From assembly GCA_945882995.1 (NCBI GenBank), contig CAMCXE010000001.1:2084-66083 (forward strand): DNA of 64,000 nt. The letters are read 5' to 3'. Every line of letters begins with the position of its first letter. Positions within the stretch are counted from its first letter, which is position 1. Of this stretch, positions 31,821 to 57,910 are shown in pieces. This DNA comes from Thalassocella blandensis (GTDB lineage: Bacteria; Pseudomonadota; Gammaproteobacteria; Pseudomonadales; Cellvibrionaceae). The position numbers and the translations under genes are program-made. The notes beneath the pieces are model-generated. The model was not told the DNA's origin and did no database searches. It saw only the letters and a list, made by a program, of their open reading frames with translations.

Positions 31821-31923
31821 GTTTTAACCAAATATTGAGTGTCACAAAAAGCAATTTGATGATACTTAATCCGCCTTAAAACAATTATTTTATAACCTCA
31901 ATCCAGTCAATATTGAGGTTTGT

Positions 31924-32487
31924 ATGAGCACCCTAGGTAACCTGCAGCGCTTTAATGAACTACTGAGCAGCCACGACTCGGCCCCACTTTATACCTTCTT
32001 GTACTCCCTAACGATTGAAGACCTGATCGTGCTGTTTCAGGAGGTGGGCATCGAGGTTACGAATTCAGCTGAGCTAAAAAAGGTCTTGGTGTCGGTAGCG
32101 TCTGATGACTTGGTGGAGCTTCGACTATCCATGAGGCAGCCACAACCAAAGCTATCCATTCCGTTATTGCAGGCGCAGCCAGTAAGTCGGGCGTCACCCT
32201 CGCGACCCAAAACCGCGTCACCTGAAGCCTATAACACCTATGTAGACAAAATTAACATGGCAGCCACCAGGGCGGTGAAAATGCCTAATCGCCAGGAGGG
32301 GGTAAAGCTCTGTAAAACACTGTTAGCCCGGCTAGATCATCTGAAGCTGGTAAAACGCGAACCGGGCGGTGAATACCGCCGGACTGAGTATGTGACTGCC
32401 ATCGAGTTACGGCTGCGCCGATTCTTGCGTGACAACGAGTTTGAGAGTGTGGCCATCATTGACGAAGAGTTGGCGGCACTGGCCTAG
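31924..32487 (+). CDS. Hypothetical protein
   Basis: 187 aa. The SD (GAGG) is embedded in a 9-bp hairpin, 31894-31902 / 31912-31920. Confidence 0.5.
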   Translation: MSTLGNLQRFNELLSSHDSAPLYTFLYSLTIEDLIVLFQEVGIEVTNSAELKKVLVSVASDDLVELRLSMRQPQPKLSIPLLQAQPVSRASPSRPKTASPEAYNTYVDKINMAATRAVKMPNRQEGVKLCKTLLARLDHLKLVKREPGGEYRRTEYVTAIELRLRRFLRDNEFESVAIIDEELAALA

Positions 32488-32643
32488 TGTGGCCTAGTGC
32501 AGTGTAAATGCCTCGCTATATTGCTCAGGCGGAAAACATTTTGTTGCTGGTTTACGCGCCAGCAAGTCTCTAGTGTTAAGTGGTAGGCACTGCCATTCAT
32601 TGGTATGTGCCGCCACAACAAACTAACGGGTGAGGGTGCGGCA

Positions 32644-33117
32644 ATGGCGCGTGGTGTCAATAAATTTACAGTGTTAGGACGGGTGGGTTCAGACCCAGTT
32701 TTAAAAGTGTTGCCAGCGGGCGGCAATGTGGTAAACCTGAGTATTGCCACCTCCTCAATATGGAAAGATAAGAAGACTGGCGAAAAGAAGGAAAGAACCG
32801 AGTGGCACCAGGTAGTACTGTTTAACCGCTTGGCTGACATAGCTTTCGAGTATGCCAAAAAAGGCCGCGAGGTTTATGTAGAGGGGCCACAACGAACCCG
32901 CTCTTGGAAGGACAAGCAGGGTGAAACTCGCTACCAGACAGAAACCGTTGCTTCGGATTTTCAATTGCTGGGCAGTAATCCCAATGCTTCTGAGCAAACG
33001 CAAAATAGCGCAGCGAGTGAATCCCCTCCTGGCTATGGTGTTGATCCTGATTTTGCCAATGATTTTGCCAATGACACACAGCTGGAATATTTTCCGGATG
33101 ATGAGATCCCGTTTTAG
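32644..33117 (+). CDS. ssb: Single-stranded DNA-binding protein
   Basis: MARGVNKFTVLGRVGSDPVLK...TEWHQVVLFNRLADIA OB-fold signature and the acidic C-terminal tip DDEIPF. Confidence 0.9.
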   Translation: MARGVNKFTVLGRVGSDPVLKVLPAGGNVVNLSIATSSIWKDKKTGEKKERTEWHQVVLFNRLADIAFEYAKKGREVYVEGPQRTRSWKDKQGETRYQTETVASDFQLLGSNPNASEQTQNSAASESPPGYGVDPDFANDFANDTQLEYFPDDEIPF

Positions 33118-33119
33118 AG

Positions 33120-33620
33120 ATGGTGGGACTCAAGTTGGTCATGGTGGATAGGTATCACAAGGGTCGCGTTCGGCCTTACGCTGAAGCAGCGGCCCTCAAC
33201 GTCATTGATAAACGTGTGGCAAAACTGGTTGAGATTCTCAATTGCGAGGGTGTCATCTACACCCGAGGCAGTTGCCAGGGGCATGGTTTTCCTTTTGTAA
33301 GAGTGCCTCCCTATGTGTCATTCAAAACCAGTGCGGCTATCGCACTGGCCTTCGACACTAGGCTCCAACAACTGTACGCGTCCTCAGTGGAGAAGCTGCA
33401 TTATTGTTGGAGGATAAAAATCAGTATCGACGACGATGGTAGCCTCACTTATGTGTTAGGAATCCCAGATTTATCATCGGGTAAATTGTGGTATGCCTTG
33501 CGGTATTGTATTGACCGGGATTTTCAATTGATTGGCTCTGCCGCTCAAACACTCCTTCAGCTTTTAAATTACCAGAACTCCGAAGTGGTGAGCCAAGTAA
33601 GTCAGTGCAATCATACCTAA
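33120..33620 (+). CDS. Hypothetical protein
   Basis: 166 aa ORF starting 3 nt after ssb. Confidence 0.45.
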   Translation: MVGLKLVMVDRYHKGRVRPYAEAAALNVIDKRVAKLVEILNCEGVIYTRGSCQGHGFPFVRVPPYVSFKTSAAIALAFDTRLQQLYASSVEKLHYCWRIKISIDDDGSLTYVLGIPDLSSGKLWYALRYCIDRDFQLIGSAAQTLLQLLNYQNSEVVSQVSQCNHT

Positions 33621-33758
33621 CAACAGGAGAACTAAAGTTATCTGTGCTTTTTGTTCACCGCGTCTTACACCAAACGGATCTTTTGAATTGCAATTATTAC
33701 AGTCTGTTGCGGTTGGGCTAAGCCCTTTGCCGCAGTCTACACATTGAGTAAGTGCCAT
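33564..33758 (-). CDS. Small zinc-ribbon plus TM protein (tentative)
   Basis: CVDCG...CNNC zinc-ribbon pattern followed by a hydrophobic helix. Convergent, with a 57-nt overlap onto 33120-33620. Confidence 0.3.
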   Translation of the reverse strand: MALTQCVDCGKGLSPTATDCNNCNSKDPFGVRRGEQKAQITLVLLLLGMIALTYLAHHFGVLVI

Positions 33759-33985
33759 AAATATTTTCCTGCTGTTGACCGCTGAATATTGAGTTGAACC
33801 CAGGTGTACAACCCTAACGCTCGGTTACAGCTGCTTACCGCAGCAACCTTACAGAGTTGGTTGTAAATTGCGCACAGCAATAACCGATTAACGCTGGATG
33901 GCGTGATCCTTACCGCATAGTGTTGGGTATCGCGCATTTTATTGGAATCGACTCATGGGTAACAGTACAGGCAGAGGGTGTAGTC

Positions 33986-36105: not shown

Positions 36106-36138
36106 GCAAACGGGCTTTAAATGCCTGCAAATTTTTAA

Positions 36139-36651: not shown

Positions 36652-36858
36652 ATGTTGATAATCTCTCGTCGCATCGGTGAGGTTCTGCGCATTAACGAAG
36701 ATGTACGAATCATGGTGCTGGATGTTGATAAGCACAGTGTTAAGTTGGGTATTCAGGCGCCCAGGCATGTTGTTGTTGATCGTGAAGAGATTTATGTGCA
36801 GCGATTGCAAGCGGGTGCCGGTTTGCCAGCCCCTGCCGCGCAGAGCAACCCGCAATAG
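36652..36858 (+). CDS. csrA: CsrA/RsmA-family post-transcriptional regulator (ICE-borne paralog)
   Basis: MLIISRRIGEVLRINEDVRIMVLDVDKHSVKLGIQAPRHVVVDREEIY aligns along its length with E. coli CsrA ([48 protein letters not shown]). Confidence 0.85.
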   Translation: MLIISRRIGEVLRINEDVRIMVLDVDKHSVKLGIQAPRHVVVDREEIYVQRLQAGAGLPAPAAQSNPQ

Positions 36859-37402: not shown

Positions 37403-37623
37403 TTGCTATGATAAAAGAGCAAATAAAGTGCAGCGGCTTTTTCCTCGCTGAACCTTAGTTCCACCCGTTCCATCTAGATCATTCAATAACGCAAACCTTC
37501 GGGTTTGATGATCGGTCGCAAGACTGCGTTAATTCTGAGTGTTATCGCTCACCCATCGGGGAATTCAAAATCCTGATGGGGTGATGAATTCCCCATTTTT
37601 TTATCAAAATTGAGGATCGTCAC
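37403..37623 (+). promoter_or_regulatory. Type A structured leader, copy 1 (extended -10, conserved hairpins, intrinsic terminator/attenuator)
   Basis: TGCTATGAT extended -10, CAGCG/CGCTG hairpin followed by GAACCTT, CAAACC-UUCG-GGUUUG hairpin, GUC-GCAA-GAC hairpin, and the terminator GGGGAATTC(19 nt)GAATTCCCC-A-T7 at 37558-37602. About 90 percent identical to 38133-38259. Confidence 0.7.
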
Positions 37624-38132: not shown

Positions 38133-38352
38133 TTGCTATGATGAAAGAGCAAAAAAGTGCAGCGGCTTTTTCCTCGCTGAACCTTTGTAGCATCCAGATC
38201 ATTCAATAACGCAAACCTTCGGGTTTGATGATCGGTCGCAAGACTGCGTTAACCTTACTCAATGAGCATTTCGCTCGCCACCCACTGGGGCAAACACTTG
38301 CCCATTGGGGGTTTGTGTTTCTCCGGTATTTTCTTACTTTTGGAGAAACACT
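38133..38352 (+). promoter_or_regulatory. Type A structured leader, copy 2 (ends in an SD-sequestering hairpin)
   Basis: Same 5' 127 nt as copy 1. The 3' part has the perfect 10-bp stem GTGTTTCTCC (38315-38324) / GGAGAAACAC (38342-38351), which covers the SD 2 nt before the ATG. Confidence 0.7.
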
Positions 38353-41348: not shown

Positions 41349-44300
41349 GTGTCGCATCCGTTTTCATTTGCACTTAAGCCGTTGGCTGCCGTTATCGCCT
41401 TGCTGGCCATTACTGCGACTCCCGCTAGTGCTGGCACCCCCGCGCAAATCAGCTTCCAAAACATCATGGATAACCGCGATGTCACCACTGGCGAAGTGGA
41501 TGCGGTATTGCAAGACAGTCAGGGCTTTTTGTGGATCGGCGGGGCCAGTGGCCTCTATCGGTTTGACGCCTACGACTTAAAACCCATGGATACGCGGCTG
41601 GATGATGGCAAGACCACTAAGGCTATTAAATTCACCAAGGCGATTTTTGAGGATTCCCACCACAAGCTGTGGGTTTCAACCCGGAACGGACTGTATCGGT
41701 ACGATCCGATATTGGATCGTATTGAGGCGCTCCAGGACGATCCCGCGCAAACACTAAAAATTAGCAGCGCCAACTTTTTAAAAACCGTTGAATTACCCAC
41801 TGGTGAAATACTGGGGTGCTCGCTGGCCGGTCTGTTTGTCATCGACCCGCAAACACTCAAATACACGGTGATTACACCCAACAACAAAAAAATTGATTGG
41901 CTACAAGGCAAGGGCGTGAACACCGCGCTAGTTGCAGCGAACGGCGATGTTTGGCTGGGTACGGATCAGGGCCTGGAGTACGTTGAATGGAAAACCAAAA
42001 CCTTCATCTTGCGAAAACCGCTTCCAGAGCAGCCGCAGTTGGTAGCCGAGAATTTTGTGACCAGCATCGCCACGGCTGGCGATGACCAGCTTTGGCTGGG
42101 CACCTCACGAGGGTTGGTGTTGTACGATACAAAATCGCTACACTCCAAGCAGTTCCTTAATAATCCAGCTGATCCTAGCAGTTTAGGCGGCAATGACATT
42201 TGGGATTTGCTGGTGGATTCCAAGGGTGCCTTATGGATCGCCACCGATGGCGGCGGGCTGGATGTATTCGATCCCGAGACTCAAACCTTCACCAATCACA
42301 AATTTGAGCCGGGTCGGGCCACTTCCCTAAATTCCGACAAGCCACGCACGGTATACGAAGATAAAAACGGCGATATTTGGGCGGGAAATTTCCCGAATGG
42401 CCTGAATTTTTACGACCGCTCCAGCGCCGCCATACAAACCTATGCCCGTGATCTCACCAACCCCAACAGCCTGAGTCACAGCGCCATTATTTCCGTCGCT
42501 GAGGCGGATAAGGGCAATTTGTGGGTGGGCACCGATGGTGGCGGATTAAATTATTTTAATCGCGCCACTGGCGAGTTTACCGCGTATAAAAATGACCCCA
42601 ATACGGCCAATTCTTTGGGTGGAAATTCTGTGCCGTCGCTCTTTGTGGATACGGCAGGCGCGGTGTGGCTGGGCACCTTCGGTGCAGGGCTAAACCGTTT
42701 TAATCCGCAGGATAAAACCACCACCCGCTATCCGTTTGAAAACCGAACGCCCACAGAGGCGGTGAGTGTTGCAAAAGCCCTGAACGGGGCCGCTGTGTGG
42801 TCCATTAAGCCGGACAAAGACAACCCTACGCTGTTGTGGCTAACCTCGCGCACCGGCGGAATTAGCCGATTGGATACGCGTACAGGGGAGTTTACGAATT
42901 ATTTTCATGTGGATGGGGACCCGAGTTCCATTGCGAATAATTCCACCTGGACAACCCTTGAGGACTCCACGGGCAATTTTTGGGTAGGTACGGCGGGCGG
43001 TTTAGACCGGCTAGACAAGGCTACGGGCAAATTCGAGCATTATTCTGGCCTGAGCAATTCATCCGCTATTAGTTTGTTGGAGGACAGCAAACAGCGTTTA
43101 TGGGTGGGCACGGACGCAGGTTTAAATTTATTGGACCCGGCCACCAAAACCTTCCAGTCGTTCACCAAGGCAGATGGGTTTGTTGACGACACTATCCGTC
43201 GCATAGTAGAGGATCACAATGGTCTGATCTGGGTAAGTACGTTTAATGGGTTTGCGTCATTGAATCCAGAAACACACAAAATCAAGACCTATAACCGCAT
43301 CGCAGGCCGATTGACCGGGGGCTTTTCTCGCTCGGGTATGTTAACCAGTCGCGGCGAAATAGTATTTGGTGGTGTAAACGGCTTGCGTATTTTTAAGCCG
43401 GATCAGCTTGAAGAAAACGCCGAGTGGCCGCAGGTGGCGCTCACTGATTTCAAGATATTCAGTGATAGCGTAGCTATAGGTGGTGACGACAAGTTGCTGA
43501 CCAGCGCCATTAATGCTACCAATCTAATCACGCTGGACCATACAAAATCCATGTTCACGCTGGAATTTACCGCGCTCAATTTCCGTGATTCTGCAAAAAA
43601 CGAATTCGCCTATAAGCTCGAAGGATTCGATAAAGATTGGATTAATGCCGGTACGGCGCGCACGGCAAAATACACCAATCTGAGTGCAGGCACCTATGTG
43701 TTCAGGGTGAGCGGCAGCAATAACGATGGGGTTTGGAATGAAGCCGGTAAAAGCCTCACCATTGTTCAATTGCCCCCACCCTGGAAAACCTGGTGGGCCT
43801 ATACGCTTTATGGGTTGATGTTTGCGGGGCTGGTGGCGGCATTTATTCGCCAGCAAATTCGTAAGCGCCAGATTATTTTGGAGCAGAACAAAATTCTGGA
43901 GATAAAGGTTGCCGAACGCACGGCGGAAGTGGTGGAGAAGGGCAAAGATATTCAAGCCATGCTGGTGAATATTCGCCAGGGACTATTCACTATTACGTCA
44001 GCGGGATTGGTTCATAACCAGTATTCGGCTTATCTTGAGACTATTTTTGAGTCACAGGATATAGCGGGGAAAGGTGTGGATGAGCTGCTGCTTTCGCGCT
44101 CTGAACTAGGGTCTGACGCTCTGGATTCTACGCAGGCCGCGCTCTTCGCAATCCTAGGTGAGAGCGAATTCAATTTCGAGTGCAACGGCTATTTGTTGCC
44201 GACCGAATTAGTTGTTCGTGTCAGCGGGCACGATAAAATCCTAGCCCTAGAGTGGAACCCCATCATTGAAAATGATGTTGTGAGCAAACTCATGGTGTCG

Positions 44301-45437
44301 GTCAGGGATGTAACGCTCTTGAAAAAAATGGAGGCCGAGGCTAGCGAACAAAAACGACAATTGGAGATTGTGGGCCAGTTACTCGGTATGAGCGCCGAGA
44401 AATTCTTAAACTTTGAGGCGGCTGCCGAAGCCTACATAGCCGCCAATCAAAACGCCCTTGAAAGTGCTCCACCTGAAAAAGACGAGACAACCATTGGCCT
44501 ACTTTTCCGCAATATGCACACCATCAAAGGCAACAGCCGCACCTTTGGCTTGAGCTATTTAAGCAATGTGGTGCATGAGGTGGAGTCAACGTATACCGAA
44601 CTAAAATCGTCCACGGAAAAACCGTGGGAGCCGTCTGCATTATTGCGTGACCTCACCAAAGCGAAAACCGCTTTGGCGGAATACAGCCATATTTATCGGA
44701 ATGTATTGGGTAGATCGCAAAACGAGCAGGAGCGCCAAGCGGGTTTTTGGATGCCCAACACCATGATGCAAAAAATACTGCATTTTGTGGACGGTGGCCT
44801 GCTGATGGATTTGAAAGTGTATGTAAGCAGAATTAATGCTAAACCCCTCGATGAATGCCTGAGCGACGTTACCGCGTCGCTAATTTCCATTGCCGCGCAG
44901 CTCGACAAAAAAGCGCCTAGCGTGATTATCCCCGCCAGCAATATCCGCATTAAACAAAACGCGCAGCAATTATTGCGTGACGTGTTTTCGCATATTTTGC
45001 GTAACTCACTCGATCACGGCCTTGAGCCACCCCTTGAGCGTGTTGCCAATGGCAAGCCCGAGGAGGGCACCATCATCATCACGCCTAGCGTGGTCGATGA
45101 TGCGCTCCATATTTTCGTCAGTGACGATGGACGCGGCCTAAACCTGCGCGCCTTGCATGGCAAAGGCATAAAACTAGGCTGGTGGGCGGAGGATGAAACA
45201 CCCTCGGTAGAGCACATGGCGCAGCTTATATTCGAGTCCGGCGTGTCCACAAAATCCACGATTTCCGATGTGTCGGGCCGTGGTGTAGGTATGGATGCGG
45301 TGCGCCAGTTTCTCATGGAGCGAGGCGGCTCAGTCGGCATAGAGTTAGACCTAGACGCATTGCCAGATACAGGTTTTGTAGCGTTTGCACTGGCCATCGT
45401 TTTACCAGCGAATACGTTTTTTGAAACGGAGGCATAA
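41349..45437 (+). CDS. Sensor histidine kinase: periplasmic two-component-regulator propeller repeats plus Y_Y_Y domain, TM, HPt domain and HATPase domain (CheA-like core)
   Basis: Many GLxxFD/LWIGT-type beta-propeller repeats. YAYKLEGFDKDW...YVFRV (Y_Y_Y), a TM segment, the HPt signature NMHTIKGNSRTFG, N-box LRNSLDHGLE, G1 DDGRGL, G2 GRGVGMD. Probable GTG start at 41349 after GGAGAA. Confidence 0.75.
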   Translation: MSHPFSFALKPLAAVIALLAITATPASAGTPAQISFQNIMDNRDVTTGEVDAVLQDSQGFLWIGGASGLYRFDAYDLKPMDTRLDDGKTTKAIKFTKAIFEDSHHKLWVSTRNGLYRYDPILDRIEALQDDPAQTLKISSANFLKTVELPTGEILGCSLAGLFVIDPQTLKYTVITPNNKKIDWLQGKGVNTALVAANGDVWLGTDQGLEYVEWKTKTFILRKPLPEQPQLVAENFVTSIATAGDDQLWLGTSRGLVLYDTKSLHSKQFLNNPADPSSLGGNDIWDLLVDSKGALWIATDGGGLDVFDPETQTFTNHKFEPGRATSLNSDKPRTVYEDKNGDIWAGNFPNGLNFYDRSSAAIQTYARDLTNPNSLSHSAIISVAEADKGNLWVGTDGGGLNYFNRATGEFTAYKNDPNTANSLGGNSVPSLFVDTAGAVWLGTFGAGLNRFNPQDKTTTRYPFENRTPTEAVSVAKALNGAAVWSIKPDKDNPTLLWLTSRTGGISRLDTRTGEFTNYFHVDGDPSSIANNSTWTTLEDSTGNFWVGTAGGLDRLDKATGKFEHYSGLSNSSAISLLEDSKQRLWVGTDAGLNLLDPATKTFQSFTKADGFVDDTIRRIVEDHNGLIWVSTFNGFASLNPETHKIKTYNRIAGRLTGGFSRSGMLTSRGEIVFGGVNGLRIFKPDQLEENAEWPQVALTDFKIFSDSVAIGGDDKLLTSAINATNLITLDHTKSMFTLEFTALNFRDSAKNEFAYKLEGFDKDWINAGTARTAKYTNLSAGTYVFRVSGSNNDGVWNEAGKSLTIVQLPPPWKTWWAYTLYGLMFAGLVAAFIRQQIRKRQIILEQNKILEIKVAERTAEVVEKGKDIQAMLVNIRQGLFTITSAGLVHNQYSAYLETIFESQDIAGKGVDELLLSRSELGSDALDSTQAALFAILGESEFNFECNGYLLPTELVVRVSGHDKILALEWNPIIENDVVSKLMVSVRDVTLLKKMEAEASEQKRQLEIVGQLLGMSAEKFLNFEAAAEAYIAANQNALESAPPEKDETTIGLLFRNMHTIKGNSRTFGLSYLSNVVHEVESTYTELKSSTEKPWEPSALLRDLTKAKTALAEYSHIYRNVLGRSQNEQERQAGFWMPNTMMQKILHFVDGGLLMDLKVYVSRINAKPLDECLSDVTASLISIAAQLDKKAPSVIIPASNIRIKQNAQQLLRDVFSHILRNSLDHGLEPPLERVANGKPEEGTIIITPSVVDDALHIFVSDDGRGLNLRALHGKGIKLGWWAEDETPSVEHMAQLIFESGVSTKSTISDVSGRGVGMDAVRQFLMERGGSVGIELDLDALPDTGFVAFALAIVLPANTFFETEA

Positions 45438-45442
45438 CAGCC

Positions 45443-45634
45443 ATGGGCGCACTAGAAACTATTACAGGTCAGCATTCAGTGCTCGCTTTGATCGCGGTGT
45501 TTCACTGGACGCTTGGCGCGGCCGCGCTGCTGATTTGTCCCCAGTGGGAGTGGCGAATGACAGGGGTGTCGTGTGTATTCGCGGGCACCATGGCGGCTGT
45601 ACTGCCGGTACTGGCCGCCATGGGTTATGCCTAG
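45443..45634 (+). CDS. Small membrane protein (tentative)
   Basis: 63 aa with two hydrophobic helices, starting 6 nt after the kinase stop. Confidence 0.35.
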   Translation: MGALETITGQHSVLALIAVFHWTLGAAALLICPQWEWRMTGVSCVFAGTMAAVLPVLAAMGYA

Positions 45635-45821
45635 CCGTGGTGGGCGGCGTTTGACGCTTGGCAAATTGGGTGCAGTCTCTCCTGCGGTCAAACCACTGGG
45701 CAGGTTTCGCTGGCGCCAGACACAGTAGTCGGCCTCCTTGGTGCTATTCCTATCCTAGGATATTCCGCTCGCACCTTCAGGCGGCTACGGCTGCAAACGC
45801 TGTGCGTTATTAGCTATTAGT

Positions 45822-45905
45822 TTGACAGTCACGAAAATTTTTGCCAACAATAGTGTGACAGTCACTAAAAATAAAAATTGCCGTTTTCGTGACGGTCACT
45901 ATAAT
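45822..45905 (+). promoter_or_regulatory. Promoter with three palindromic operator-like boxes GTGAC-N-GTCAC
   Basis: Boxes at 45822-45832 (TTGACAGTCAC), 45855-45865 (GTGACAGTCAC) and 45889-45899 (GTGACGGTCAC), spaced 33-34 bp apart. TATAAT at 45900-45905 abuts box 3. TTGCCG lies 16 nt upstream. Confidence 0.6.
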
Positions 45906-45941
45906 TAAGTTACCCGCCACTTCTCGCTATGGGTATATTTT

Positions 45942-46238
45942 ATGATTGACGCTAATGACAACTTCACGATGGACGCTTTCACTGAGGCGCCCCGCCGCAA
46001 AGGCCGCCCGCCCACTGGCAAAGCCATGACGCCATCCGCGCGTAAGGCGGCTCAGCGCAGGCGTGATTTTATGGCGCTGTGTACCGACTTGGGCGCTATT
46101 GATTTTCACGGGGCCTCTATAACCTCGTTGCTGGAATATTTGCCGAAAGCGATTGCTGCGGGCCGCGTCTTGGCGGTTGAGGCAATTGCCGCCGAGCTGA
46201 TTTTGCGGGCAACACACAATAGCGATAATCACGCGTAA
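45942..46238 (+). CDS. Small basic protein, possible DNA-binding regulator
   Basis: 98 aa. Basic N-terminus APRRKGRPPTGKAMTPSARKAAQRRR. Sits behind the three-box promoter. Confidence 0.45.
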   Translation: MIDANDNFTMDAFTEAPRRKGRPPTGKAMTPSARKAAQRRRDFMALCTDLGAIDFHGASITSLLEYLPKAIAAGRVLAVEAIAAELILRATHNSDNHA

Positions 46239-46267
46239 ATCAGCACCAACAATCGAGCGGGGTCTCT

Positions 46268-46528
46268 GTGATGGGAATTTTTGAGGTGGTTGGTTCGGGT
46301 ACCGGCATTGCCGGGGCCATACTCTTGGCGCTAAAAATCCGCTATTCGCCATGGGCCTGGCCACTTTGGGTGCTGTCTTGTTTTGCATGGATTTTGTTTG
46401 GCTTGTCCACTCAAGCCTATCCCTTGGTTGTGCAAAATGCTGTGTTTATCGGTATCAATATCATTGGCACATGGACTTGGCTGGTTAAGCCGTGGCTTCT
46501 GCGCCCCGCGCAGGAAAACAAAATATAA
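46268..46528 (+). CDS. Small 3-TM membrane protein (PnuC/SemiSWEET-like, tentative)
   Basis: 86 aa, Trp-rich TM helices (YSPWAWPLWVLSCFAWILFGL, FIGINIIGTWTW) reminiscent of PnuC-type repeats. Confidence 0.4.
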   Translation: MMGIFEVVGSGTGIAGAILLALKIRYSPWAWPLWVLSCFAWILFGLSTQAYPLVVQNAVFIGINIIGTWTWLVKPWLLRPAQENKI

Positions 46529-46557
46529 CCTCTGAATTATGTAGCAGCCGCACAAAG

Positions 46558-49500
46558 CTATTCGATGGGTAAATGACTCGGTACGGACACCTCCACACAA
46601 TTGCGCCCCGATTGTTTGGCCGTGTAAAGCGCCACATCCGCCAGCTTTAACATTTTATCAAAGGTGTCATCCGGCTTAATGCAGGCAGACACACCCATGC
46701 TAATGGTGACGCTCAACGGGTTGTCACCCTGCTCAAAGGTGTGTGCCGCTACAGCCACGCGGATTTTCTCGGCAAGGCGCACCGCGCTGTCCAGTGTGGT
46801 ACTGGGGCACATCAACACAAACTCCTCGCCGCCCCAGCGGGCCAAGTGGTCGCCCGACCGAATATTCTGCAAAACCACGTCTACCAAACCCTTAATCACC
46901 CTGTCTCCAGCATCATGGCCACGGTTGTCGTTAATGCGCTTGAAGTGGTCAATATCAAAAATCATTAAGCACACGCCCTTTTTCATTTCGTCGTTGATAA
47001 ACAGACCGGCAATGATTTGATTAAGACCGTGGCGGTTATAAATCCCGGTCATGGCGTCGGTAGCGGATAGGGTTTTGTATTTGTCGGTTTGGTTATGCAG
47101 GTGAACCCAGTAACGGCGCCCAATCTCAGCGGCCAGCAACAACAATCCGTAAAGCCCGTAAGCCCAGCTCGTGCGCCAAAAAGGCGGGGTAATTTCAATG
47201 GCAAGACTGGTTTCGCTGGTCATGCCGGGAGTTGCATGGTTGGCGGCGCGCACCCGGAAGCGGTACTGACCTGGAGCCAGGTTGGTATAGGTGGCGGAGC
47301 CTGCGGGTGTGCCCATGCGCCACTGGGTGTCGAAACCTTCCAGCCTGTAGCTGTAGTCATAGCTTGCTGAAGAGACAAAATTTAGGCCCACATAATCAAT
47401 GGAAAACATTGGGTCGCTCCAAGCTAGTTGAAGTTTTTCGGTATGACCTAAGTCTTGGCTCAAAAGTGATCCGGCACTGCCGGGGATTTGTGGTGTGCTG
47501 CCAAGGCGCAGCTCAGTAAGCACTACGCGGTGTAGGTTGGCGGGACTGTCCATCCCGGCACCCTTGGCGGTGACTTTGACCGGATCAAACTCGGTGACCC
47601 CTTCAGTACTGCCGATCCACAAGTGCTGCTGGCGATCTAGCAGCGCCGCGTTGCGCGTCACGCTAGACCCGGCTAGGCCGTGGCGTTTGCGGTAGGTTTG
47701 AACATGGCGACTAACGGGGTCAATATGGGCCAAGCCGTTGATGGTGCCTAGCCACACGCCGCCCTGAGCGTCTTCGATGATGGTGCTGATGGAATTAGAT
47801 GGCAGCCCATTATGGGTGGTGAGCCTACTGAACTGCTCTTTAGTGGGGTCTAGGATGCTCACCCCATCACTCTTGGTGCCCACCCAAATATTGCCCTTGG
47901 AATCCTCCATAAGCGCCAGTATGTGATCCGCTGCAAGGCTGTTAGGGTCGCTGGCACTATGGGTGTAATGGGTGAACCTGCGCGTGGCGATATTGAATTT
48001 ATCCAACCCCTTGAGCGTGCCCAGCCACAAGTTACCTCGGCTGTCCGGCAGCAAGGCTTTAACAAAATCATACGCCAGGGAATTGGGATTGGAGGGGTTG
48101 TGGCTGAAGTTTTCAAAACTGTCGGTGTCGGGACGGTACAGACCAAAGCCCCCTCGCTCCAAATAACACACCCAAAGGTTGCCGGTTTTATCGCGGGCAA
48201 TTTGTGAAATGTAGGGGCTGGCCACCGCGCCGGGGTTATTGGCGTCTGGGTAGTAATTCTTGAAAGTCGCCGTCTGGCGATTAAACCGATGCAGGCCACC
48301 CGACCAAGTGCCCACCCAAAGATTACCACTGGTGTCTTCGCCCAAACTGGTCACCGCATTAAAGCGTAGGCTGTTCGGGTTTTTGGGGTTGGCGGTGTAG
48401 CGAGTGCTAGCGCCAGTCACAGGGCTGATGGAGACTAATCCCGTTTCGCTGCCCACCCAAATAAGGCCTTGGGAATCCTGAAACACACTGGTGATTTGAT
48501 CGAGTGGCTGAGTATTGTCTATGGCGCCTGCGATCTTGTGCGGAATAAAGGTGGCCTTGTGTTCATCGTACAGGTTGACGCCATCCGGGAAGGTGCCAAC
48601 CCATACGTTGCCATCACGGTCTTCAAAAATATCCCGCACTTGATTTGACCGCAAAGAGCCGGGATCAAGGGCATCATGTCGCACGCGGGTAAATTCATCG
48701 GTGCTAGCATCGTAAACCGCAAGCCCGCCATGGTCGGTGGCCACCCACAGGGTTTGGTGGTATTCCCGAATATCCCGTATGGCATCGCTCCCCAGTGACC
48801 GCTCATTATCGGGGTTAGACCGGTAAATTCTGAAGGTTCGCCGGTCGGCGTTCATGCGGCTCAGCCCGCCCGAATAGGAGCCCACCCAGATTTGCCCAAG
48901 GTGGTCTTCATAGATACGCTCAATATCACCCTCTTGGAGCGATGCGGGATCATTGGCGTCGTGGCGCCACCGCTCAAATTTACCGGTCAGCGGGTCAAAT
49001 ACATTCAAGCCTTTGCTTGTAGTTCCAATCCAGACTTTTTGGTGAGAGTCGATAAACAGCGAGCGCGCATTATCGCCGCTCAAGCTGTTCGGGTTGGCGG
49101 CATCGGCCATGTGCTTGCGAAAGCCGGTGCGGTCGGCACTCAGCACATTGAGGCCTGCGGAGGTGCCGATATACAGTTGGTTCTGGGCGTCTACCGCTAG
49201 GGCCATGATCAGGCTACTGCTTAAATCCTTAGCGCCGGAACCTTCCTGGTACCGGGTAAAATCGTCGGTTTGCGCGTTGTAGCGGTTTAAGCCATTAAAA
49301 GTGCCCAGCCAAAGCACACCGGATTTATCCACGGCAAGTGCGGCTATGTAGTTGGACGATAGGGAGCGAGGGTTGAATGGGTCGTAAAAATAGAATTTGA
49401 AGTGCTGCGAATCGTAGCGCGCCAAGCCGTATTCACCGGCAAACCACATAAACCCGTGGCGGTCTTGAATGATGTCTTTAATGGCGCCGATGGATTGTTG

Positions 49501-49617
49501 TTCAGCGCCATCCGCTGTTAACAGGCGCTGAAAACGTAAATTCAGCTGCGCGTTCGGTGCGGCCGCTACAACAGCTCCGCTCCACAATACAATTAGTACC
49601 ACCACCCAACGAAACAC
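46558..49617 (-). CDS. Sensor diguanylate cyclase: propeller repeats plus Y_Y_Y domain, TM, GGDEF domain
   Basis: Same repeat architecture as the kinase. YSYRLEGFDTQW...YRFRV, a TM segment, then a GGDEF domain with RWGGEEF and DIDHFKRINDNRGHDAGD. Confidence 0.85.
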   Translation of the reverse strand: MFRWVVVLIVLWSGAVVAAAPNAQLNLRFQRLLTADGAEQQSIGAIKDIIQDRHGFMWFAGEYGLARYDSQHFKFYFYDPFNPRSLSSNYIAALAVDKSGVLWLGTFNGLNRYNAQTDDFTRYQEGSGAKDLSSSLIMALAVDAQNQLYIGTSAGLNVLSADRTGFRKHMADAANPNSLSGDNARSLFIDSHQKVWIGTTSKGLNVFDPLTGKFERWRHDANDPASLQEGDIERIYEDHLGQIWVGSYSGGLSRMNADRRTFRIYRSNPDNERSLGSDAIRDIREYHQTLWVATDHGGLAVYDASTDEFTRVRHDALDPGSLRSNQVRDIFEDRDGNVWVGTFPDGVNLYDEHKATFIPHKIAGAIDNTQPLDQITSVFQDSQGLIWVGSETGLVSISPVTGASTRYTANPKNPNSLRFNAVTSLGEDTSGNLWVGTWSGGLHRFNRQTATFKNYYPDANNPGAVASPYISQIARDKTGNLWVCYLERGGFGLYRPDTDSFENFSHNPSNPNSLAYDFVKALLPDSRGNLWLGTLKGLDKFNIATRRFTHYTHSASDPNSLAADHILALMEDSKGNIWVGTKSDGVSILDPTKEQFSRLTTHNGLPSNSISTIIEDAQGGVWLGTINGLAHIDPVSRHVQTYRKRHGLAGSSVTRNAALLDRQQHLWIGSTEGVTEFDPVKVTAKGAGMDSPANLHRVVLTELRLGSTPQIPGSAGSLLSQDLGHTEKLQLAWSDPMFSIDYVGLNFVSSASYDYSYRLEGFDTQWRMGTPAGSATYTNLAPGQYRFRVRAANHATPGMTSETSLAIEITPPFWRTSWAYGLYGLLLLAAEIGRRYWVHLHNQTDKYKTLSATDAMTGIYNRHGLNQIIAGLFINDEMKKGVCLMIFDIDHFKRINDNRGHDAGDRVIKGLVDVVLQNIRSGDHLARWGGEEFVLMCPSTTLDSAVRLAEKIRVAVAAHTFEQGDNPLSVTISMGVSACIKPDDTFDKMLKLADVALYTAKQSGRNCVEVSVPSHLPIE

Positions 49618-49756: not shown

Positions 49757-49945
49757 TTGCGCAACAGTCCATTCAGTGCAATGATTAAAGCGCAAAACGT
49801 CTCAACGAACGTACCGTTGACCCTTAAGAGCTGCGCACTGAATCTGTAATCGCAGTATGGCTTTACGGCCTGATTCTATTTTTTAAAACCCGCGCGGGAG
49901 AAATCCCGACCGGGGTGCTCTCGCATTTTTTTTGGAGAGTACCCT
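49757..49945 (+). promoter_or_regulatory. Type B promoter plus structured leader, copy 1 (upstream of radC)
   Basis: TTGCGC, 17 nt, TGcAATGAT. Hairpin TCAACG(7 nt)CGTTGA followed by CCCTT. CGGGA-GAAA-UCCCG hairpin. SD-sequestering stem 49914-49922 / 49935-49943. Confidence 0.7.
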
Positions 49946-50631: not shown

Positions 50632-50792
50632 AATAAAAAGCTCCCTCAAAATGCTGAAACGGGAGCGCCCAATCTTCGGATTGGGTGGCATTAAACCTAA
50701 CAGGCGAAAGCCTTCACTCAACCCACTGGGGCAATTTTCCCAGTGGGGAAAGTTGTGTCTCCAGTGGGTTAATTTAATTTGGAGATACAACC
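50632..50792 (+). promoter_or_regulatory. Type C structured leader / intercistronic element, copy 1
   Basis: Nearly identical to 51904-52064. Hairpins GCUCCC...GGGAGC, CCCAAUC-UUCG-GAUUGGG, AGGC-GAAA-GCCU and CCCACUGGGG / CCCAGUGGGG / CCAGUGGG (alternative pairings), plus the SD stem 50755-50762 / 50781-50788. Confidence 0.7.
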
Positions 50793-51905: not shown

Positions 51906-52064
51906 TAAAAAGCTCCCTCTAAATGCTGAAACGGGAGCGCCCAATCTTCGGATTGGGCGGCATTAAACCTAACAGGCGAAAGCCTTGACTCAACCCACTG
52001 GGGCAATTTTCCCAGTGGGGAAAGTTGTGTCTCCAGTGGGTTATTTTATTTTGGAGATATGACT
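51904..52064 (+). promoter_or_regulatory. Type C structured leader / intercistronic element, copy 2
   Basis: Starts at the stop codon of the upstream gene. Only a few mismatches relative to copy 1. Confidence 0.7.
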
Positions 52065-52652: not shown

Positions 52653-52895
52653 TTGAAAATTTCGTATTTCGGTGCAATCATTAAGGCGTATAACGTCTCA
52701 GCGAACGCACCGCTGAACCTTTGTTACAACGTCTTGGCGAACGTACCGCCGAACCTTTATAGCTGCGCACCAGGTTTGCAATCGCAGCAAGACGCAAGTC
52801 TGACCTGACACTACACCACCCATCGGGGAGTCTAATCCTCCCCTCCGGGACGGTGATGCTCCCCAGTTTAATTCCTAAACTTCGGAGCAGGCACC
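52653..52895 (+). promoter_or_regulatory. Type B promoter plus structured leader, copy 3 (hairpin module duplicated)
   Basis: TTGAAA, 17 nt, TGcAATCAT. Two tandem hairpin modules, TCAGCG(7)CGCTGA-ACCTTT and TTGGCG(7)CGCCGA-ACCTTT. SD stem 52857-52862 / 52884-52889. Confidence 0.7.
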
Positions 52896-53478: not shown

Positions 53479-53508
53479 GTTGCTCGAAGGTCCAGCAAGC
53501 AAATTGCA

Positions 53509-54264: not shown

Positions 54265-54279
54265 ACTGGCCTCCGGGAT

Positions 54280-54696
54280 TTACAGCCAAGGATTAAGAAG
54301 TTTTACACCCGTCAATTCAAAATCGAGTGTATTGCGAGTCACTACTGTCATGCTATGAATAATTCCCGTTGCGGCAATAAACGCATCCCGCTCGGAGCGA
54401 GGGTCGGGAATGTGCAGCCCAGCGCAGCACTGCGCCACGGCCACGTCTATGGGTAAAATGCGCCCTGCAAAGGCGGGTATCACTTGCTCGTCGAGCCAGC
54501 GTCGTAGCATATCGCTTTGCACCGGGTCTTTCTGTGCGACGCGACGAATACCCAGTTCAAGTTCCATGATGGTTATCACTGATAAATGCAGTGAATCCGT
54601 GGCCACCGCCTGCGCCCAAGTCACCACACCCTTATGGGCGCGCCCTGCCCGCCCTTTGCGCAGCTCGGACACCACATGGGTATCGAGTAAATACAT
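54280..54696 (-). CDS. vapC: Type II toxin VapC (PIN domain ribonuclease)
   Basis: MYLLDTHVVSELRK...ITIMELELG...AFIAATGIIHSMTVVTRNTLDF, a typical PIN/VapC-FitB pattern with conserved acidic residues. Confidence 0.85.
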   Translation of the reverse strand: MYLLDTHVVSELRKGRAGRAHKGVVTWAQAVATDSLHLSVITIMELELGIRRVAQKDPVQSDMLRRWLDEQVIPAFAGRILPIDVAVAQCCAGLHIPDPRSERDAFIAATGIIHSMTVVTRNTLDFELTGVKLLNPWL

Positions 54697-54962
54697 CAGG
54701 ATAAATCCGGTATTTGCGCCGCAACGGCAATTTTTTGAGGCTCGAATTCAATTGTGTCATCAGCGGGCATGGACAGTAATTCGGTAATGTTTGGCTGCTT
54801 ACCCGTCATGCGACGAAATTCATCGAAGGTCATGAGCACATAGGAAGGCTTGCCGCGATCGGTGATAAATACCGGCCCCTGCAAGGCGGCCCGCTTGGCG
54901 CCGCCGGTGTCTTGATTGAATTCGCGGCTGGAAACGGATGTTGTCGGCATGGTAAACCCCAA
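54696..54962 (-). CDS. Type II antitoxin (Phd/YefM-type) partner of VapC
   Basis: SSREFNQDTGGAKRAALQGPVFITDRGKPSYVLMTFDEF is a typical Phd/YefM N-terminus. Its stop overlaps the vapC start. The likely true start is Met 54950. Confidence 0.75.
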   Translation of the reverse strand: MGFTMPTTSVSSREFNQDTGGAKRAALQGPVFITDRGKPSYVLMTFDEFRRMTGKQPNITELLSMPADDTIEFEPQKIAVAAQIPDLS

Positions 54963-55053
54963 TTAAGTAGCAATGTATAAACAATAGCGCTTAGCTGGCT
55001 TGGCTGCAAGTTTATTTATTTTGCGAATTTGTGAGTGGCACAAAAAACTACGG

Positions 55054-55246
55054 TTGCGATTTCGGGGTTTGGGTGCAATGATTAAAGGGCAAAACGTCTC
55101 AGCGAACGTACCGCTGAACCTTAGAGTTGCGCATCGAATCTGCAATCGCAGCATGGCTTAATCGCCTGATTCTATTTTTTTCTAACCCGCGTGGGAGTCA
55201 TCCCGCATGGGGTGCTCTTCGCATTTTATTTTTGGAGAGCATCACC
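55054..55246 (+). promoter_or_regulatory. Type B promoter plus structured leader, copy 2
   Basis: TTGCGA, 17 nt, TGcAATGAT. Hairpin TCAGCG(7)CGCTGA-ACCTTAG. SD stem 55211-55218 / 55236-55243. Alignable to copy 1 all the way to the ATG. Confidence 0.7.
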
Positions 55247-55792
55247 ATGATTTCAGTACCCGGCACCATCAAAATCCGCAGTGTAGAAGGCCGTTTTGGC
55301 TCCTTCAATGTGGCCACACTCGATTGCTCCATCGGTTCGTTTACGGTCAAAGACGCCTCTATTGAGGAGTTTGACCAGGGCGTTTATACCGGTGATTTTG
55401 TGATTGAAAAAATTAAACCACAAAGTTACATCTCAAACGGCCGCATGGTGGTTGAGGTTCGAGCCATACTCAGCGCCATTATGCTGAGTCGGGATTCGGT
55501 ACATCAGCCCTGTGATGAATTTGAGTCGCTAGAGCAAGACCCGATGGAAGCCGAAGCGGGTGTTGATGAAGGCCCAGAGCCTGAATTGACCCCGGCACCG
55601 GATGAGGTGGAGGTTGAAGTGGTTGATGATGAGCTGGACGAAGCTGCCCGTTTATTCGGAATACTTTGGCCGCTCGGTAACGTCATTAAACTCGACCCAA
55701 CCATTAACCGTGCGTTGTTCCGTCAGCAAAAAGATTACCTGAAAAATGCAGGTTTTCGCTTTGTTGCCGCCGATCAACACTGGTTACGGTAA
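55247..55792 (+). CDS. Hypothetical ICE protein (DUF3275-like, tentative) with acidic linker
   Basis: Start at ATG 55247 (MISVPGTIKIRSVEGRFGSFNVATL...). OB-like N-terminal region and an acidic stretch EAEAGVDEGPEPELTPAPDEVEVEVVDDELDE. Confidence 0.45.
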   Translation: MISVPGTIKIRSVEGRFGSFNVATLDCSIGSFTVKDASIEEFDQGVYTGDFVIEKIKPQSYISNGRMVVEVRAILSAIMLSRDSVHQPCDEFESLEQDPMEAEAGVDEGPEPELTPAPDEVEVEVVDDELDEAARLFGILWPLGNVIKLDPTINRALFRQQKDYLKNAGFRFVAADQHWLR

Positions 55793-55804
55793 GGGGGTTG
55801 TGTC

Positions 55805-56926
55805 ATGGCACTTATCTTTCAACGCTTAGCGCGTAACTTTATCAAAAATGGCTACTTCCCCACGGATGAAGCCACCATTTCTCGCGTATTGGCCATGCTT
55901 GAAGCCCCGGTAGGACAGGTCAGAATTTGTGACCCCTGTTGTGGCGAAGGTATTGCCTTGGCGGAATGTGCGCATTACTTGAAAGATGCCGGTTCCTCGG
56001 TGTTTAGTGCAGGCATTGAATTTAATGCCGAGCGCGCCAGCAATGCTAAGCAGTTACTCGATCATGTTGTGCATTCCGATATTCAGGACTGTGTAATGAG
56101 TAACGGCCAGTTCAACTTACTGTGGTTAAACCCGCCGTATGGTGATCGCATTACCGACCAAACGCTAAGCACTAACGCCTCGGAAAAACAGGGGCGCGAC
56201 CGCTTGGAGAAGTATTTTTTATCCCGCGCAATGCCCACTTTAGCGTTTGGTGGCTTGCTCATTTTTATCATTCCGCACTATGTGCTGGATCGACACCTCG
56301 CCAAACAGCTTGCTCGTAGTCTGAGTGAATTGTCGGTGTATCGCTTGCCTGAAGATCAATTCAAGCAGGTGGTAATTATGGGGTATCGACGCCGAGGGGA
56401 AGTTGCCGCCGGTGATGCTGAGATCGTGAATCGCCTCGTGAATATTTCGGGTGATCGTGACTTGGCTCCAGAACTGCCCGAAGTCCCTGAGCGGTTTTAT
56501 CAGGTTTCCACGGTAACGCCCGATGTACAAAGGCGCTGCTTGGAATTTCGCTCAGTAAGGCCTACGGCGGAACAGGCTTGGGAAGTTTCACAGCTACACC
56601 CCTGCTTGTGGGATGAATTTTCATTGCACTTTGGTCGGAGTGACGCGGTAAAACGCCCACCCGCTCGGGCGCTTTCGGATTGGCACTTATCCCTCATGTT
56701 GGCTGCTGGCCAAGTATCGGGTGTAGTGACTTCCAAAAGTGGTCGGCAATTGTTAGTAAAAGGCAGTACCCATAAGGAAAAGGAGCTAACCACGACCTTT
56801 AGCGAGGACGCGGATGGCAATCTGGAAGAAACCAGAATCCTGACCGATAGGTTTGTGCCTGTGATTAAAGCCATTGATGTAACGCCTGGCGCTGCAACCT
56901 TTGGTGATGTTTTGACGATACGTTAA
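55805..56926 (+). CDS. N6-adenine DNA methyltransferase-like protein (DUF6094-type)
   Basis: SAM-binding motif I ICDPCCGEGIAL and catalytic motif IV LWLNPPYG (NPPY). Confidence 0.7.
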   Translation: MALIFQRLARNFIKNGYFPTDEATISRVLAMLEAPVGQVRICDPCCGEGIALAECAHYLKDAGSSVFSAGIEFNAERASNAKQLLDHVVHSDIQDCVMSNGQFNLLWLNPPYGDRITDQTLSTNASEKQGRDRLEKYFLSRAMPTLAFGGLLIFIIPHYVLDRHLAKQLARSLSELSVYRLPEDQFKQVVIMGYRRRGEVAAGDAEIVNRLVNISGDRDLAPELPEVPERFYQVSTVTPDVQRRCLEFRSVRPTAEQAWEVSQLHPCLWDEFSLHFGRSDAVKRPPARALSDWHLSLMLAAGQVSGVVTSKSGRQLLVKGSTHKEKELTTTFSEDADGNLEETRILTDRFVPVIKAIDVTPGAATFGDVLTIR

Positions 56927-56945
56927 ACCGGCATTTATGCCATTT

Positions 56946-56979
56946 CCCGATTGGGCCTTCCAATCGGGAGGCCTTTTTT
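56946..56979 (+). terminator. Probable Rho-independent terminator
   Basis: CCCGATTGG-GCCTT-CCAATCGGG, then AGGCC and TTTTTT. An alternative stem is GGCCT/AGGCC directly before the T-run. Confidence 0.6.
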
Positions 56980-57008
56980 ATTTTTTCTTTAATTTAAAAG
57001 GTGAGCAT

Positions 57009-57731
57009 ATGTTGGATGATTTTTACAGTATCAAAGAGGCGTCAATGCCAATGTTTGTGGATTCGTATTTGGTGGACGAAGGCCGGTTGTTGTTTTGTTC
57101 TTTGTGGGGTGGTGAGACGGCGATGCAGGAGTTTTTAGCGCGCTTAACACTGCCGGAAGCCGAATTCGGATTGCGAGAATTTACCCTCCTAGACCCCGAT
57201 GACGGAAGGATGTACGACGAAATTTCGGTGGGTAATGCTGCCGAACTTTCCAAGCTCACCGCCAGAACACCCTCCACAACGGTGCTCGGGTCGCTCTGCC
57301 ATGTTTGGCTGTACGACCCGGTATTGCAAAAACACAGCGCGGCTCGCCGCGAGCGGTATTTGTTAATGCGCCAGGGGTTTACATCTGATCCAGATGGTGT
57401 CCTCAGTGATATTTGGTCAGCCATTAAGGAGCTTTGTCACATACCCTTGATGGATGTGTGGGAAAGACCCATTACGGCTTACATGACTACACAAACGTGG
57501 CTGTACGACATAGAAGGTGTAGGTGGTGTTGATGGTTTAAAAATCACCATACCGGAACAGGAGTTTACGGAGGCAGTGCAGGCGATGTTGCGCGACGGGA
57601 CATTAAGTCTTGACCCGGCACCGCCAACACCTAATCCATTAACACCGGATGATCCTGAAGTTGTACAACCTGAAAAACAGCGCGGCCCGGTTATGCAGTC
57701 TGAGCTGTTTGGCACGGTTTCACTGTTTTGA
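57009..57731 (+). CDS. Hypothetical protein between the methylase and the helicase
   Basis: 240 aa from ATG 57009 (GGTGAG upstream). No recognisable motif. Confidence 0.5.
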   Translation: MLDDFYSIKEASMPMFVDSYLVDEGRLLFCSLWGGETAMQEFLARLTLPEAEFGLREFTLLDPDDGRMYDEISVGNAAELSKLTARTPSTTVLGSLCHVWLYDPVLQKHSAARRERYLLMRQGFTSDPDGVLSDIWSAIKELCHIPLMDVWERPITAYMTTQTWLYDIEGVGGVDGLKITIPEQEFTEAVQAMLRDGTLSLDPAPPTPNPLTPDDPEVVQPEKQRGPVMQSELFGTVSLF

Positions 57732-57910
57732 GGAGAGTAAAAATCGTGACTTTCACGAACCCGTAAGCGAAGTCAGGGCGCAAGCCTGGGGTTCATTGTA
57801 ATTTGTAAACACTCACTGTTTTCATTTGAAAACAACACCTTGACCCTGCGGGCACAAACTCCCGTAGGGGCTTGTGTTGGCGGGGTTTTCTTATTTTTGA
57901 GGAAACCTTT

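Follow-up and report, generated by a model that had tools for sequence, protein, structure and literature searches.

Why should the anti-restriction and establishment genes of a large mobile element carry ribosome-binding sites that are folded shut? The question is raised by a stretch of 64,000 nucleotides from Thalassocella blandensis (contig CAMCXE010000001.1), referred to here as the window, in which an initial annotation had described hairpins over the Shine-Dalgarno (SD) sequence of at least eight unrelated genes. Matches to Pfam and NCBIfam identify the element in the window as an integrative and conjugative element (ICE) of the PFGI-1/ICEclc/pKLC102 class (mating-pair formation type G, MPF_G). 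It encodes a TraI_2 relaxase, a type IV coupling protein (T4CP), a PFGI-1-class ParB and PilL2, along with a replication protein of the STY4528 family and an AcaB-like regulator. SSB, topoisomerase III, ArdB/KlcA, DUF3577, RadC (gene 49946, from its Pfam match) and DUF3275 are also present, as are a DUF6094 methylase, an SNF2 helicase and a paralog of CsrA. The genes with a trapped SD are the anti-restriction and establishment-type genes of this ICE, and a long repeated leader (types A, B and C) is found in front of each trapped establishment-type gene. It is proposed here, with reasonable though far from complete confidence, that the hairpins serve radC-class mRNA leaders as a translational expression platform which is off by default and opens by strand exchange with a neighbouring decoy hairpin. 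The best reading of the window leaders is that they are divergent radC-class variants missed by Rfam.

Ribosome-Binding Sites Held in Hairpins

Two quantities were computed for each start, both in kcal/mol: the local minimum free energy (MFE) over positions -45 to +12, and dG_open, the free energy needed to make positions -15 to +3 single-stranded. The seven pairs of arms that the initial annotation had located all form helices, and the trap that it had expected in copy C2, before gene 52065, is present at 52024-52035 / 52052-52063 (Table 1). The trap stems are 6-12 bp long, end 1-6 nt before the ATG and carry GGAG or GAGG in the 3' arm. For seven trapped genes the local MFE lies between -16.9 and -22.2 kcal/mol. 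The eighth hairpin, in front of gene 31924, does exist at its coordinates, but it is weak and not significant on its own, and neither a decoy hairpin nor a leader family was found there. The start of the SNF2 helicase gene had to be corrected to the ATG at 57911.

The stems differ in sequence while pairing is retained. Opposite the same 5' arm GGUGC, the 3' arm reads GUACC in copy B1 and GCAUC in copy B2, so that G.U and G-C pairs trade places, just as had been noticed earlier. Similarly, the substitutions that separate the C2 trap from the C1 trap keep the pairing by means of three G.U pairs. A variant from a freshwater metagenome (run X1) carries G>A at window position 55212, by which a G.U pair of the B2 trap becomes A-U. 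The description of the loops as U-rich holds for the window, where six of the eight hairpins have at least 50% U in the loop, but not in general, as the loops of GC-rich relatives are pyrimidine-rich rather than U-rich.

How unusual are these structures? Genes were called in the whole assembly (3.96 Mb) with a simple Markov gene finder, and a systematic folding scan was run over the 2718 usable starts. The mean dG_open of the genome is 6.2 kcal/mol, with the 95th percentile at 12.25 and the 99th at 15.8, and seven of the eight traps fall at 14.7-17.7 kcal/mol, that is, in the 98.5-99.7th percentile. Contiguous SD-containing stems of at least 9 bp occur only eight times in the genome, five of them on this contig. 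Strong traps were observed in 7 of 29 ICE genes as against 40 of 2666 genes elsewhere (Fisher p = 3.6e-7), and the enrichment persists when paralogous leaders are collapsed (5 of 27 ICE genes, p = 6e-5). By these folding models, the SD of the accessory genes is sequestered with unusual stability. The genes on the side of the type IV secretion system (T4SS) are ordinary in this respect: 20 such genes have a median of 6.0 kcal/mol and do not differ from the genome, which bears out the earlier impression that they lack traps. The same impression about ssb (gene 32644) was mistaken. This gene is partly trapped, at 12.6 kcal/mol (95.6th percentile), by a helix UGCCGC..GCGGCA that closes at the AUG and has the SD, GAGGG, in its 3' strand.

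The Decoy Hairpin

Each strong trap has a preceding G/C hairpin, termed P1. One arm of P1 resembles an SD (the variants are GGGAG, GGGGAG, GAGGGGA and CAAGGGA), while the other resembles an anti-SD and is often identical to the real one (CUCCC, UCCCUUG). From these identities, the leader can be read as four segments in the order SD', aSD', aSD, SD, where the primes denote the look-alikes; some DUF3275 leaders have the order aSD', SD', aSD, SD. Within the trap, the partners of the real anti-SD are the real SD and the spacer as far as the AUG, and the loop that separates the two arms is poor in purines and rich in U or pyrimidines. The traps had been said to occur independently of leader family. 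It is true that the sequences of the locks differ, but all of them belong to one conserved two-hairpin module made of P1 and the trap.

The type A leader carries two kinds of platform, the SD trap of A2 and a terminator-like hairpin in A1. In A1, which precedes the ardB/klcA-like gene and is without a strong SD trap, the linker between P1 and the terminator-like helix has zero length and the two are mutually exclusive. As they cannot coexist, P1 would act here as an antiterminator. Among the window leaders, the form of an intrinsic terminator (a G+C-rich stem followed by a U-tract) is found only at ardB, at 37558-37602. The traps themselves were also considered as intrinsic terminators, an idea that was rejected because their U-run sits in the loop between the arms. 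A variant of it, in which the U-rich loop serves as the U-tract behind a hairpin of SD mimic and anti-SD, was dropped since it would need stronger stems immediately upstream and since no such tract exists in type C.

The Link to the radC RNA

RNAs of the radC and STAXI families constitute 80% of the RNA genes in MPF_G ICEs (Cury et al., PMC5587801). The radC motif was described in the 5' untranslated regions (UTRs) of radC, integrase, methylase and anti-restriction genes (Weinberg et al. 2010, PMC2864571), and that description names no expression platform for it (PMC2864571 supplement). Two loci related to the window have strong Rfam radC matches (112.7 and 131.7 bits) upstream of DUF3577 genes. 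In both of them, about 100 nt past the end of the radC model, there is a G/C hairpin and then an SD-sequestering hairpin with a pyrimidine-rich loop, as in GGUGUGUCUCC..GGAGAUUCACC-AUG.

A covariance model of our own, R1, was built from ten Rfam-positive radC copies. With it, about 150 copies were detected, all of them on the gene strand, in about 60 of 80 loci that contain DUF3275 and come from many Proteobacteria; a locus typically has 3-5 copies. These loci had been collected with a 5-sequence DUF3275 alignment, a 10-protein alignment being too divergent. The stretch between motif and gene could then be studied in 80 distinct tails with an ATG within 120 nt, which finish in this two-hairpin arrangement. 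Their median dG_open is 14.7 kcal/mol, as against 7.5 when the 5' 30 nt are shuffled; 78 of the 80 exceed their own shuffle mean, and in 80% of them the observed value is reached by at most 5% of shuffles. In GC-matched control open reading frames (ORFs) taken from these loci, the median is 8.4 (Mann-Whitney p = 9e-18). The SD is therefore paired with an upstream anti-SD beyond chance, as is expected of an expression platform.

Sequence comparison further indicates that the module recurs in front of non-homologous genes, with stems that are different yet always complementary. At least six gene classes are involved, each with its own stem sequence: those for proteins of 265, 218, 83 and 78 amino acids (aa), DUF3577 and RadC. 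For one class, a 13-sequence alignment shows pairing in 95.7% of the cells, compared with 48-57% when the partners are slid; three pairs of the trap helix are changed in both arms, and six carry a G.U change in one arm. The closest relatives of the DUF3275 protein (L028, L108 and L109, 47-49% identity) are likewise preceded by P1 and a trap, with differing stems and U-rich loops. In the metagenomic L108 (2880-3000) and L109, the leader consists of a terminator, P1 and the trap, with no upstream domain, which suggests that the two-hairpin module can stand alone. The metagenome scan returned just two relatives, and lake metatranscriptome contigs cover the coding parts of relatives and nothing else.

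In the window itself, the link to radC has a different basis. Rfam scans (of 36 kb and of 5.7 kb) gave no family at the gathering threshold or at E<=10, only terminator-like noise, and the whole-genome search of G000 gave 0 matches to the radC RNA (RF01754), for which the covariance model has a gathering score of 40 bits. With filters off, R1 scored the two type C units at 9.4 and 9.0 bits, matches that are weak and partial. The 5' halves of these units (50639-50684 and 51911-51956) are the best matches in the window to model positions 95-140, and type C may, on this resemblance, be a truncated radC relative. The consensus helices of radC are a CAGC-type hairpin, a second hairpin, a UUCG hairpin with GAUC, and a terminal CCAUCG..CGAUGG hairpin; helices like these can be made out by eye in types A and B, without statistical support. 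In position, the leaders agree with the published motif, as they precede ardB, DUF3577, radC and DUF3275-methylase genes on an ICE of the PFGI-1 class.

The idea of a shared translational gate on the accessory and establishment genes, and not on the T4SS core, is thus supported, because the locks of the window are statistical outliers and many related ICEs also have them behind radC-type leaders.

Messenger RNA or Transferred Strand

Hairpins in this part of an ICE could also function as DNA. They might form in the transferred strand, where they would provide an Frpo-like promoter, a priming site or a protein-binding site, and their overlap with the SD would be incidental. The leading-region-type genes do share one orientation and adjoin the relaxase gene, and single-stranded promoters are known for such genes (PMC11541004). 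The folding of the leaders speaks otherwise. As sense RNA, the B2 leader has a z-score of -2.99, and 0 of 200 shuffles are as good, whereas as DNA it is no better than shuffles in either the antisense (z -0.65) or the sense strand (z -1.11). The A2 leader as RNA reaches z -3.99. Of 750 pairs in trap helices, 59 are G.U, as against 12 A.C single mismatches, an excess of 5 to 1. In the 63-nt trap regions, the MFE of the sense and antisense strands differs marginally (p = 0.06). Furthermore, the stems always contain the SD and finish at the AUG, and no long stem with paired -35 and -10 hexamers, of the Frpo or single-strand initiation (ssi) kind, was seen. A promoter scan gave a full -35/-10 solely for B3; TGCTATGAT and TGCAATGAT are putative extended -10 motifs, and the sole paired portion of an extended -10 is TGCT.

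The mRNA of a relative includes the module. Public RNA-seq contigs from a host with a canonical relative, about 97% identical to locus L100, span the radC motif, the tail and the coding sequence continuously, with coverage from about position 5145. Across the region of radC, DUF3577 and DUF3275 (L100 4800-6900), two runs reach a summed depth of 1e5-1e6, while two further runs of that study reach 38-632, contig depth being a rough measure of RNA level. The difference is more than 1000-fold (X14 and X18 versus X16 and X17), and in two runs the region is among the most abundant RNAs. This shows that the leaders belong to the mRNA and that transcription is strongly regulated too. The coupling to the single-stranded state after transfer, which the initial annotation had listed as a candidate, finds no support when B2 is structured as RNA and not as DNA and the leaders of a relative are transcribed with their genes. 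A function at the DNA level is accordingly considered very improbable.

How the Trap Might Open

In the proposed mechanism, translation would be off by default. For the switch to the on state, the SD-like strand of P1, or the P1 loop, would pair with the anti-SD by strand exchange and set the real SD free. What drives the refolding would be the input to the conserved upstream domain of the leader, be it an RNA-binding factor, a processing event or something else. Candidate triggers are an RNA-binding factor acting on that domain and a cleavage in the single-stranded pyrimidine-rich loop. Once the trap is opened, this loop probably provides further registers for the anti-SD or a site at which the ribosome can land (protein S1).

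Predicted alternative folds are consistent with such an exchange. Inclusion of 100 nt of context lowers the cost of opening the SD to 5.1-5.6 kcal/mol in type C, 10-11 in type B, 14.7 in A2 and 9.8 at SNF2, although the SD is still paired in the ensemble. The SD-open fold of C1 lies just 5.1 kcal/mol above the closed one. In the open folds, the SD mimic pairs with the anti-SD: CUGGGGCAAACAC with GUGUUUCUCCGG in A2, GGGGAGU with the real anti-SD GCUCCCC in B3, and AACCCACUGG with CCAGUGGGUU in type C. The drop due to context is -3.0 kcal/mol in radC tails versus -1.6 in equally structured background genes (p = 1e-4). A leader together with its own anti-SD arm gives -10.0 kcal/mol versus -8.35 with the arms of other classes (p = 1e-4), a preference that varies by class.

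Several observations tell against a switch of this kind. The evidence for alternative pairing is modest and heterogeneous between classes, and the closed state is favoured by 5-15 kcal/mol, so that switching is something we infer. All the energies are predictions, and the gene starts come from our own simple gene finder. The type A and B leaders of the window are detected neither by the Rfam radC model nor by R1, and their link to radC therefore rests on context and architecture. No trigger emerged among a thermometer, the ICE CsrA and a leader peptide; the last was rejected because the 9-codon ORF of B1 shrinks to 2 codons in B2. Finally, the lock is not universal. Distinct DUF3275 leaders (57-63 of them, for the most part short intergenic regions that follow DUF3577) cost no more to open than their shuffles; in the set of 63, the median dG_open is 7.1-7.6 kcal/mol. 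A first idea, that the lock is conserved in all DUF3275 leaders, was rejected by this shuffle test on orthologous leaders; the lock tracks radC-type leaders and not the DUF3275 gene.

The points just listed would in part suit hairpins that never switch. These would be a constitutive throttle or stabiliser, keeping the translation of potentially costly proteins low and protecting the mRNA, with ribosomes entering through standby binding at the U-rich loop. The missing trigger and the strongly favoured closed state speak for such a device, the range of RNA levels between runs of the relative means that transcription alone could regulate, and lock strength varies widely among relatives. Nevertheless, strong canonical SDs (GGAG, AGGAG) are conserved inside the strong stems, where a weak SD would be the cheaper throttle. 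A conserved decoy with SD-like and anti-SD-like arms stands beside every trap, and a terminator platform is found on the same leader type. The throttle is therefore regarded as unlikely.

The CsrA paralog of the element offers another possibility, as it or the CsrA of the host could bind the GGA of P1 and of the SD and either repress or open the trap. The paralog (68 aa, 64 bits) is encoded inside the ICE at 36652-36858, a second and better-scoring csrA lies on contig C24 of the same genome, P1 and the trap have one GGA each, 25-40 nt apart, and in G275 a csrA copy is 2.6 kb from the DUF3275 gene. However, G088 and G363 have canonical radC leaders and locks while their single csrA is 360-700 kb from the ICE, and G318 is without any csrA. 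The GGA motifs are, moreover, in stems and not in hairpin loops. The CsrA-type activator that the initial annotation had put forward is not general, and this kind of control is judged quite improbable.

Its other candidate, an RNA thermometer that melts on a temperature upshift, can be rejected. SD sequestration next to U-rich sequence does recall fourU elements, but the stems are 9-12 bp long and mostly perfect, the module is found in hosts from very different habitats, and opening the SD is predicted to cost 11-14 kcal/mol even at 50 C; such a function is scarcely credible.

With these alternatives weighed, the default-off platform opened by strand exchange is the account that we retain. The two-hairpin lock is probably the missing on/off part of the radC RNA family. 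More tentatively, and with more doubt than belief, the radC-class leaders with P1 and trap might be one widespread modular RNA switch that gates the translation of nearly every establishment and anti-restriction gene of PFGI-1/ICEclc/PAPI-1-class ICEs. The signal for it would be tied to transfer, for instance an RNA-binding factor of the ICE or of the host, a processing event, or the state of the element just after its entry.

Features of the Window and Neighbouring Genes

Table 1. Hairpins at gene starts in the window (positions and strand refer to the window; energies in kcal/mol; percentile of dG_open among the 2718 starts in brackets)
Feature	Position	Strand	Arms and remarks	Local MFE	dG_open
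Weak SD hairpin, gene 31924	31894..31920	+	AACCTCAAT / ATTGAGGTT, 9 bp, loop 9 nt	-9.0	10.5 (90th)
Partial SD trap, ssb	32608..32643	+	UGCCGCCAC .. GUGAGGGUGCGGCA
Alternative platform, type A1, ardB/klcA-like gene (start 37624)	37550..37602	+	P1 CACCCAUC..GAUGGGGUG, interlocks with terminator-like hairpin GGGGAAUUCA..UGAAUUCCCC, then U7		7.8
P1 decoy, type A2	38281..38311	+	CCCACUGGGGCAA-ACAC-UUGCCCAUUGGGGG; 5' half GGGGCAAACAC mimics SD arm GGAGAAACAC
SD trap, DUF3577 gene (start 38353)	38315..38351	+	GTGTTTCTCCGG / TTGGAGAAACAC, U-rich 13-nt loop	-21.7	17.7 (99.7th)
P1 region, type B1	49888..49916	+	ACCC-GCGC-GGGAGAAAUCCCG-ACC-GGGGU; SD-like CGGGAG
SD trap, radC (start 49946)	49913..49944	+	GGGTGCTCTC / GAGAGTACCC, loop GCAUUUUUUUUG	-21.6	14.7 (98.5th)
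P1, type C1	50722..50747	+	CCCACUGGG-GCAAUUUU-CCCAGUGGG; 5' arm has alternative partner CCAGUGGG within trap
SD trap, gene 50793 (370 aa; no family matched)	50752..50791	+	GTTGTGTCTCCA / TGGAGATACAAC	-17.8	16.7 (99.4th)
P1, type C2	51994..52019	+
SD trap, gene 52065 (161 aa)	52024..52063	+	GTTGTGTCTCCA / TGGAGATATGAC	-16.9	16.4 (99.2th)
P1, type B3	52825..52843	+	GGGGAG-UCUAAUC-CUCCCC; SD-like 5' arm, anti-SD-like 3' arm
SD trap, gene 52896 (68 aa)	52852..52895	+	GGTGATGCTCC / GGAGCAGGCACC, inner hairpin within loop	-20.5	15.2 (98.7th)
P1 region, type B2	55185..55213	+	ACCC-GCGU-GGGAGUCAUCCCG-CAU-GGGGU
SD trap, DUF3275 gene (start 55247)	55211..55243	+	GGTGCTCTTC / GGAGAGCATC, loop GCAUUUUAUUUUU	-22.2	15.8 (98.9th)
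P1-type CCC/GGG hairpins, before SNF2 trap	57844..57870	+	CCCUGCGGG..CUCCCGUAGGGG
SD trap, SNF2 helicase (ATG 57911)	57882..57909	+	GGGGTTTTCTTA / TGAGGAAACCTT, loop UUUU	-20.2	15.8 (99.0th)

Other parts of the window are of interest in their own right. The T4CP gene on the minus strand diverges from a 146-aa ORF and the TraI_2 relaxase gene on the plus strand (18905-24252). By analogy with the gonococcal genetic island, the 577-bp spacer between the divergent T4CP and relaxase genes (20861-21437) is likely the origin of transfer (oriT) region. The start of the PFGI-1-class parB at 25461 overlaps the end of parA and is strongly structured (dG_open 14.8 kcal/mol), which probably points to translational coupling and not to a leader lock. 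The cargo that separates the DUF3577 module from the radC module comprises two large Reg_prop/Y_Y_Y sensor proteins (a hybrid histidine kinase and a GGDEF protein; 41349-49587) and TraT (40436); the starts of the genes in this cargo are not trapped. Further on, a CoiA_N-domain protein is encoded at 60690-61529, directly past a mini-array of clustered regularly interspaced short palindromic repeats (CRISPR), and the protein encoded at 62298-63530 is a fusion of an HTH_31 domain with a BsaWI-like restriction endonuclease domain.

Comparison with Known Regulatory Systems

SD sequestration as such is ordinary. What is new is the conserved module of decoy and trap, the fact that it is joined to an orphan RNA family, and how generally it is used, with almost every establishment gene in a large class of ICEs behind it; none of these elements was found in the searchable literature. 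ICEs of this class carry catabolic, resistance and virulence traits across the Proteobacteria, and the radC RNA, described in 2010, has stayed an orphan motif ever since. A conserved lock on the ribosome-binding site forms the end of the radC copies and of divergent leaders that escape Rfam, and the vague label 'cis-regulatory?' is thereby turned into a testable mechanism, for which small mutations in the anti-SD arm and in the decoy arm are defined. If the reading as a modular switch is true, the orphan family gains a function, and the establishment genes gain a third, post-transcriptional kind of timing beside single-stranded promoters and repressor dilution.

The radC motif and the window leaders have in common the MPF_G family of ICEs, the position in the 5' UTR of radC, anti-restriction, methylase and DUF3577 genes, the occurrence in several copies per element and, as judged by eye, a multi-hairpin domain with a UUCG-type hairpin. 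Canonical radC copies also share the module of P1 and trap downstream of the motif. The differences are that the window leaders score no match to the Rfam model at E<=10, and that both the Rfam model and the original description end before P1 and the trap.

The plasmid systems in which establishment genes are regulated by Frpo single-stranded promoters (PMC11541004) or timed by the Reg576 repressor (PMC6294495) act on the same class of genes (ssb, anti-restriction, orphan methylase) and answer the same need for timed expression. These systems, however, control transcription at the DNA level, whereas here a conserved mRNA structure is found at the ribosome-binding site.

RNA thermometers such as ROSE and fourU also have the SD paired in a local hairpin, but the present stems are far too stable and are without destabilising mismatches. 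The target leaders of CsrA/RsmA share the GGA-containing SD region, and a CsrA paralog is present on the element; here, in contrast, the GGA is in stems, and relatives have the same locks without a csrA on the ICE.

The platforms of translational riboswitches and attenuators, for example the four-segment ermC leader, are likewise built of four consecutive segments, in which the pairings 1:2 and 3:4 give the off state and 1:3 or 2:3 leave the SD free. The sister leader A1 swaps in a terminator, as riboswitch classes often do. Unlike in those systems, neither a ligand nor a conserved leader peptide was found here, and the decoy hairpin is itself a look-alike of the SD and the anti-SD.

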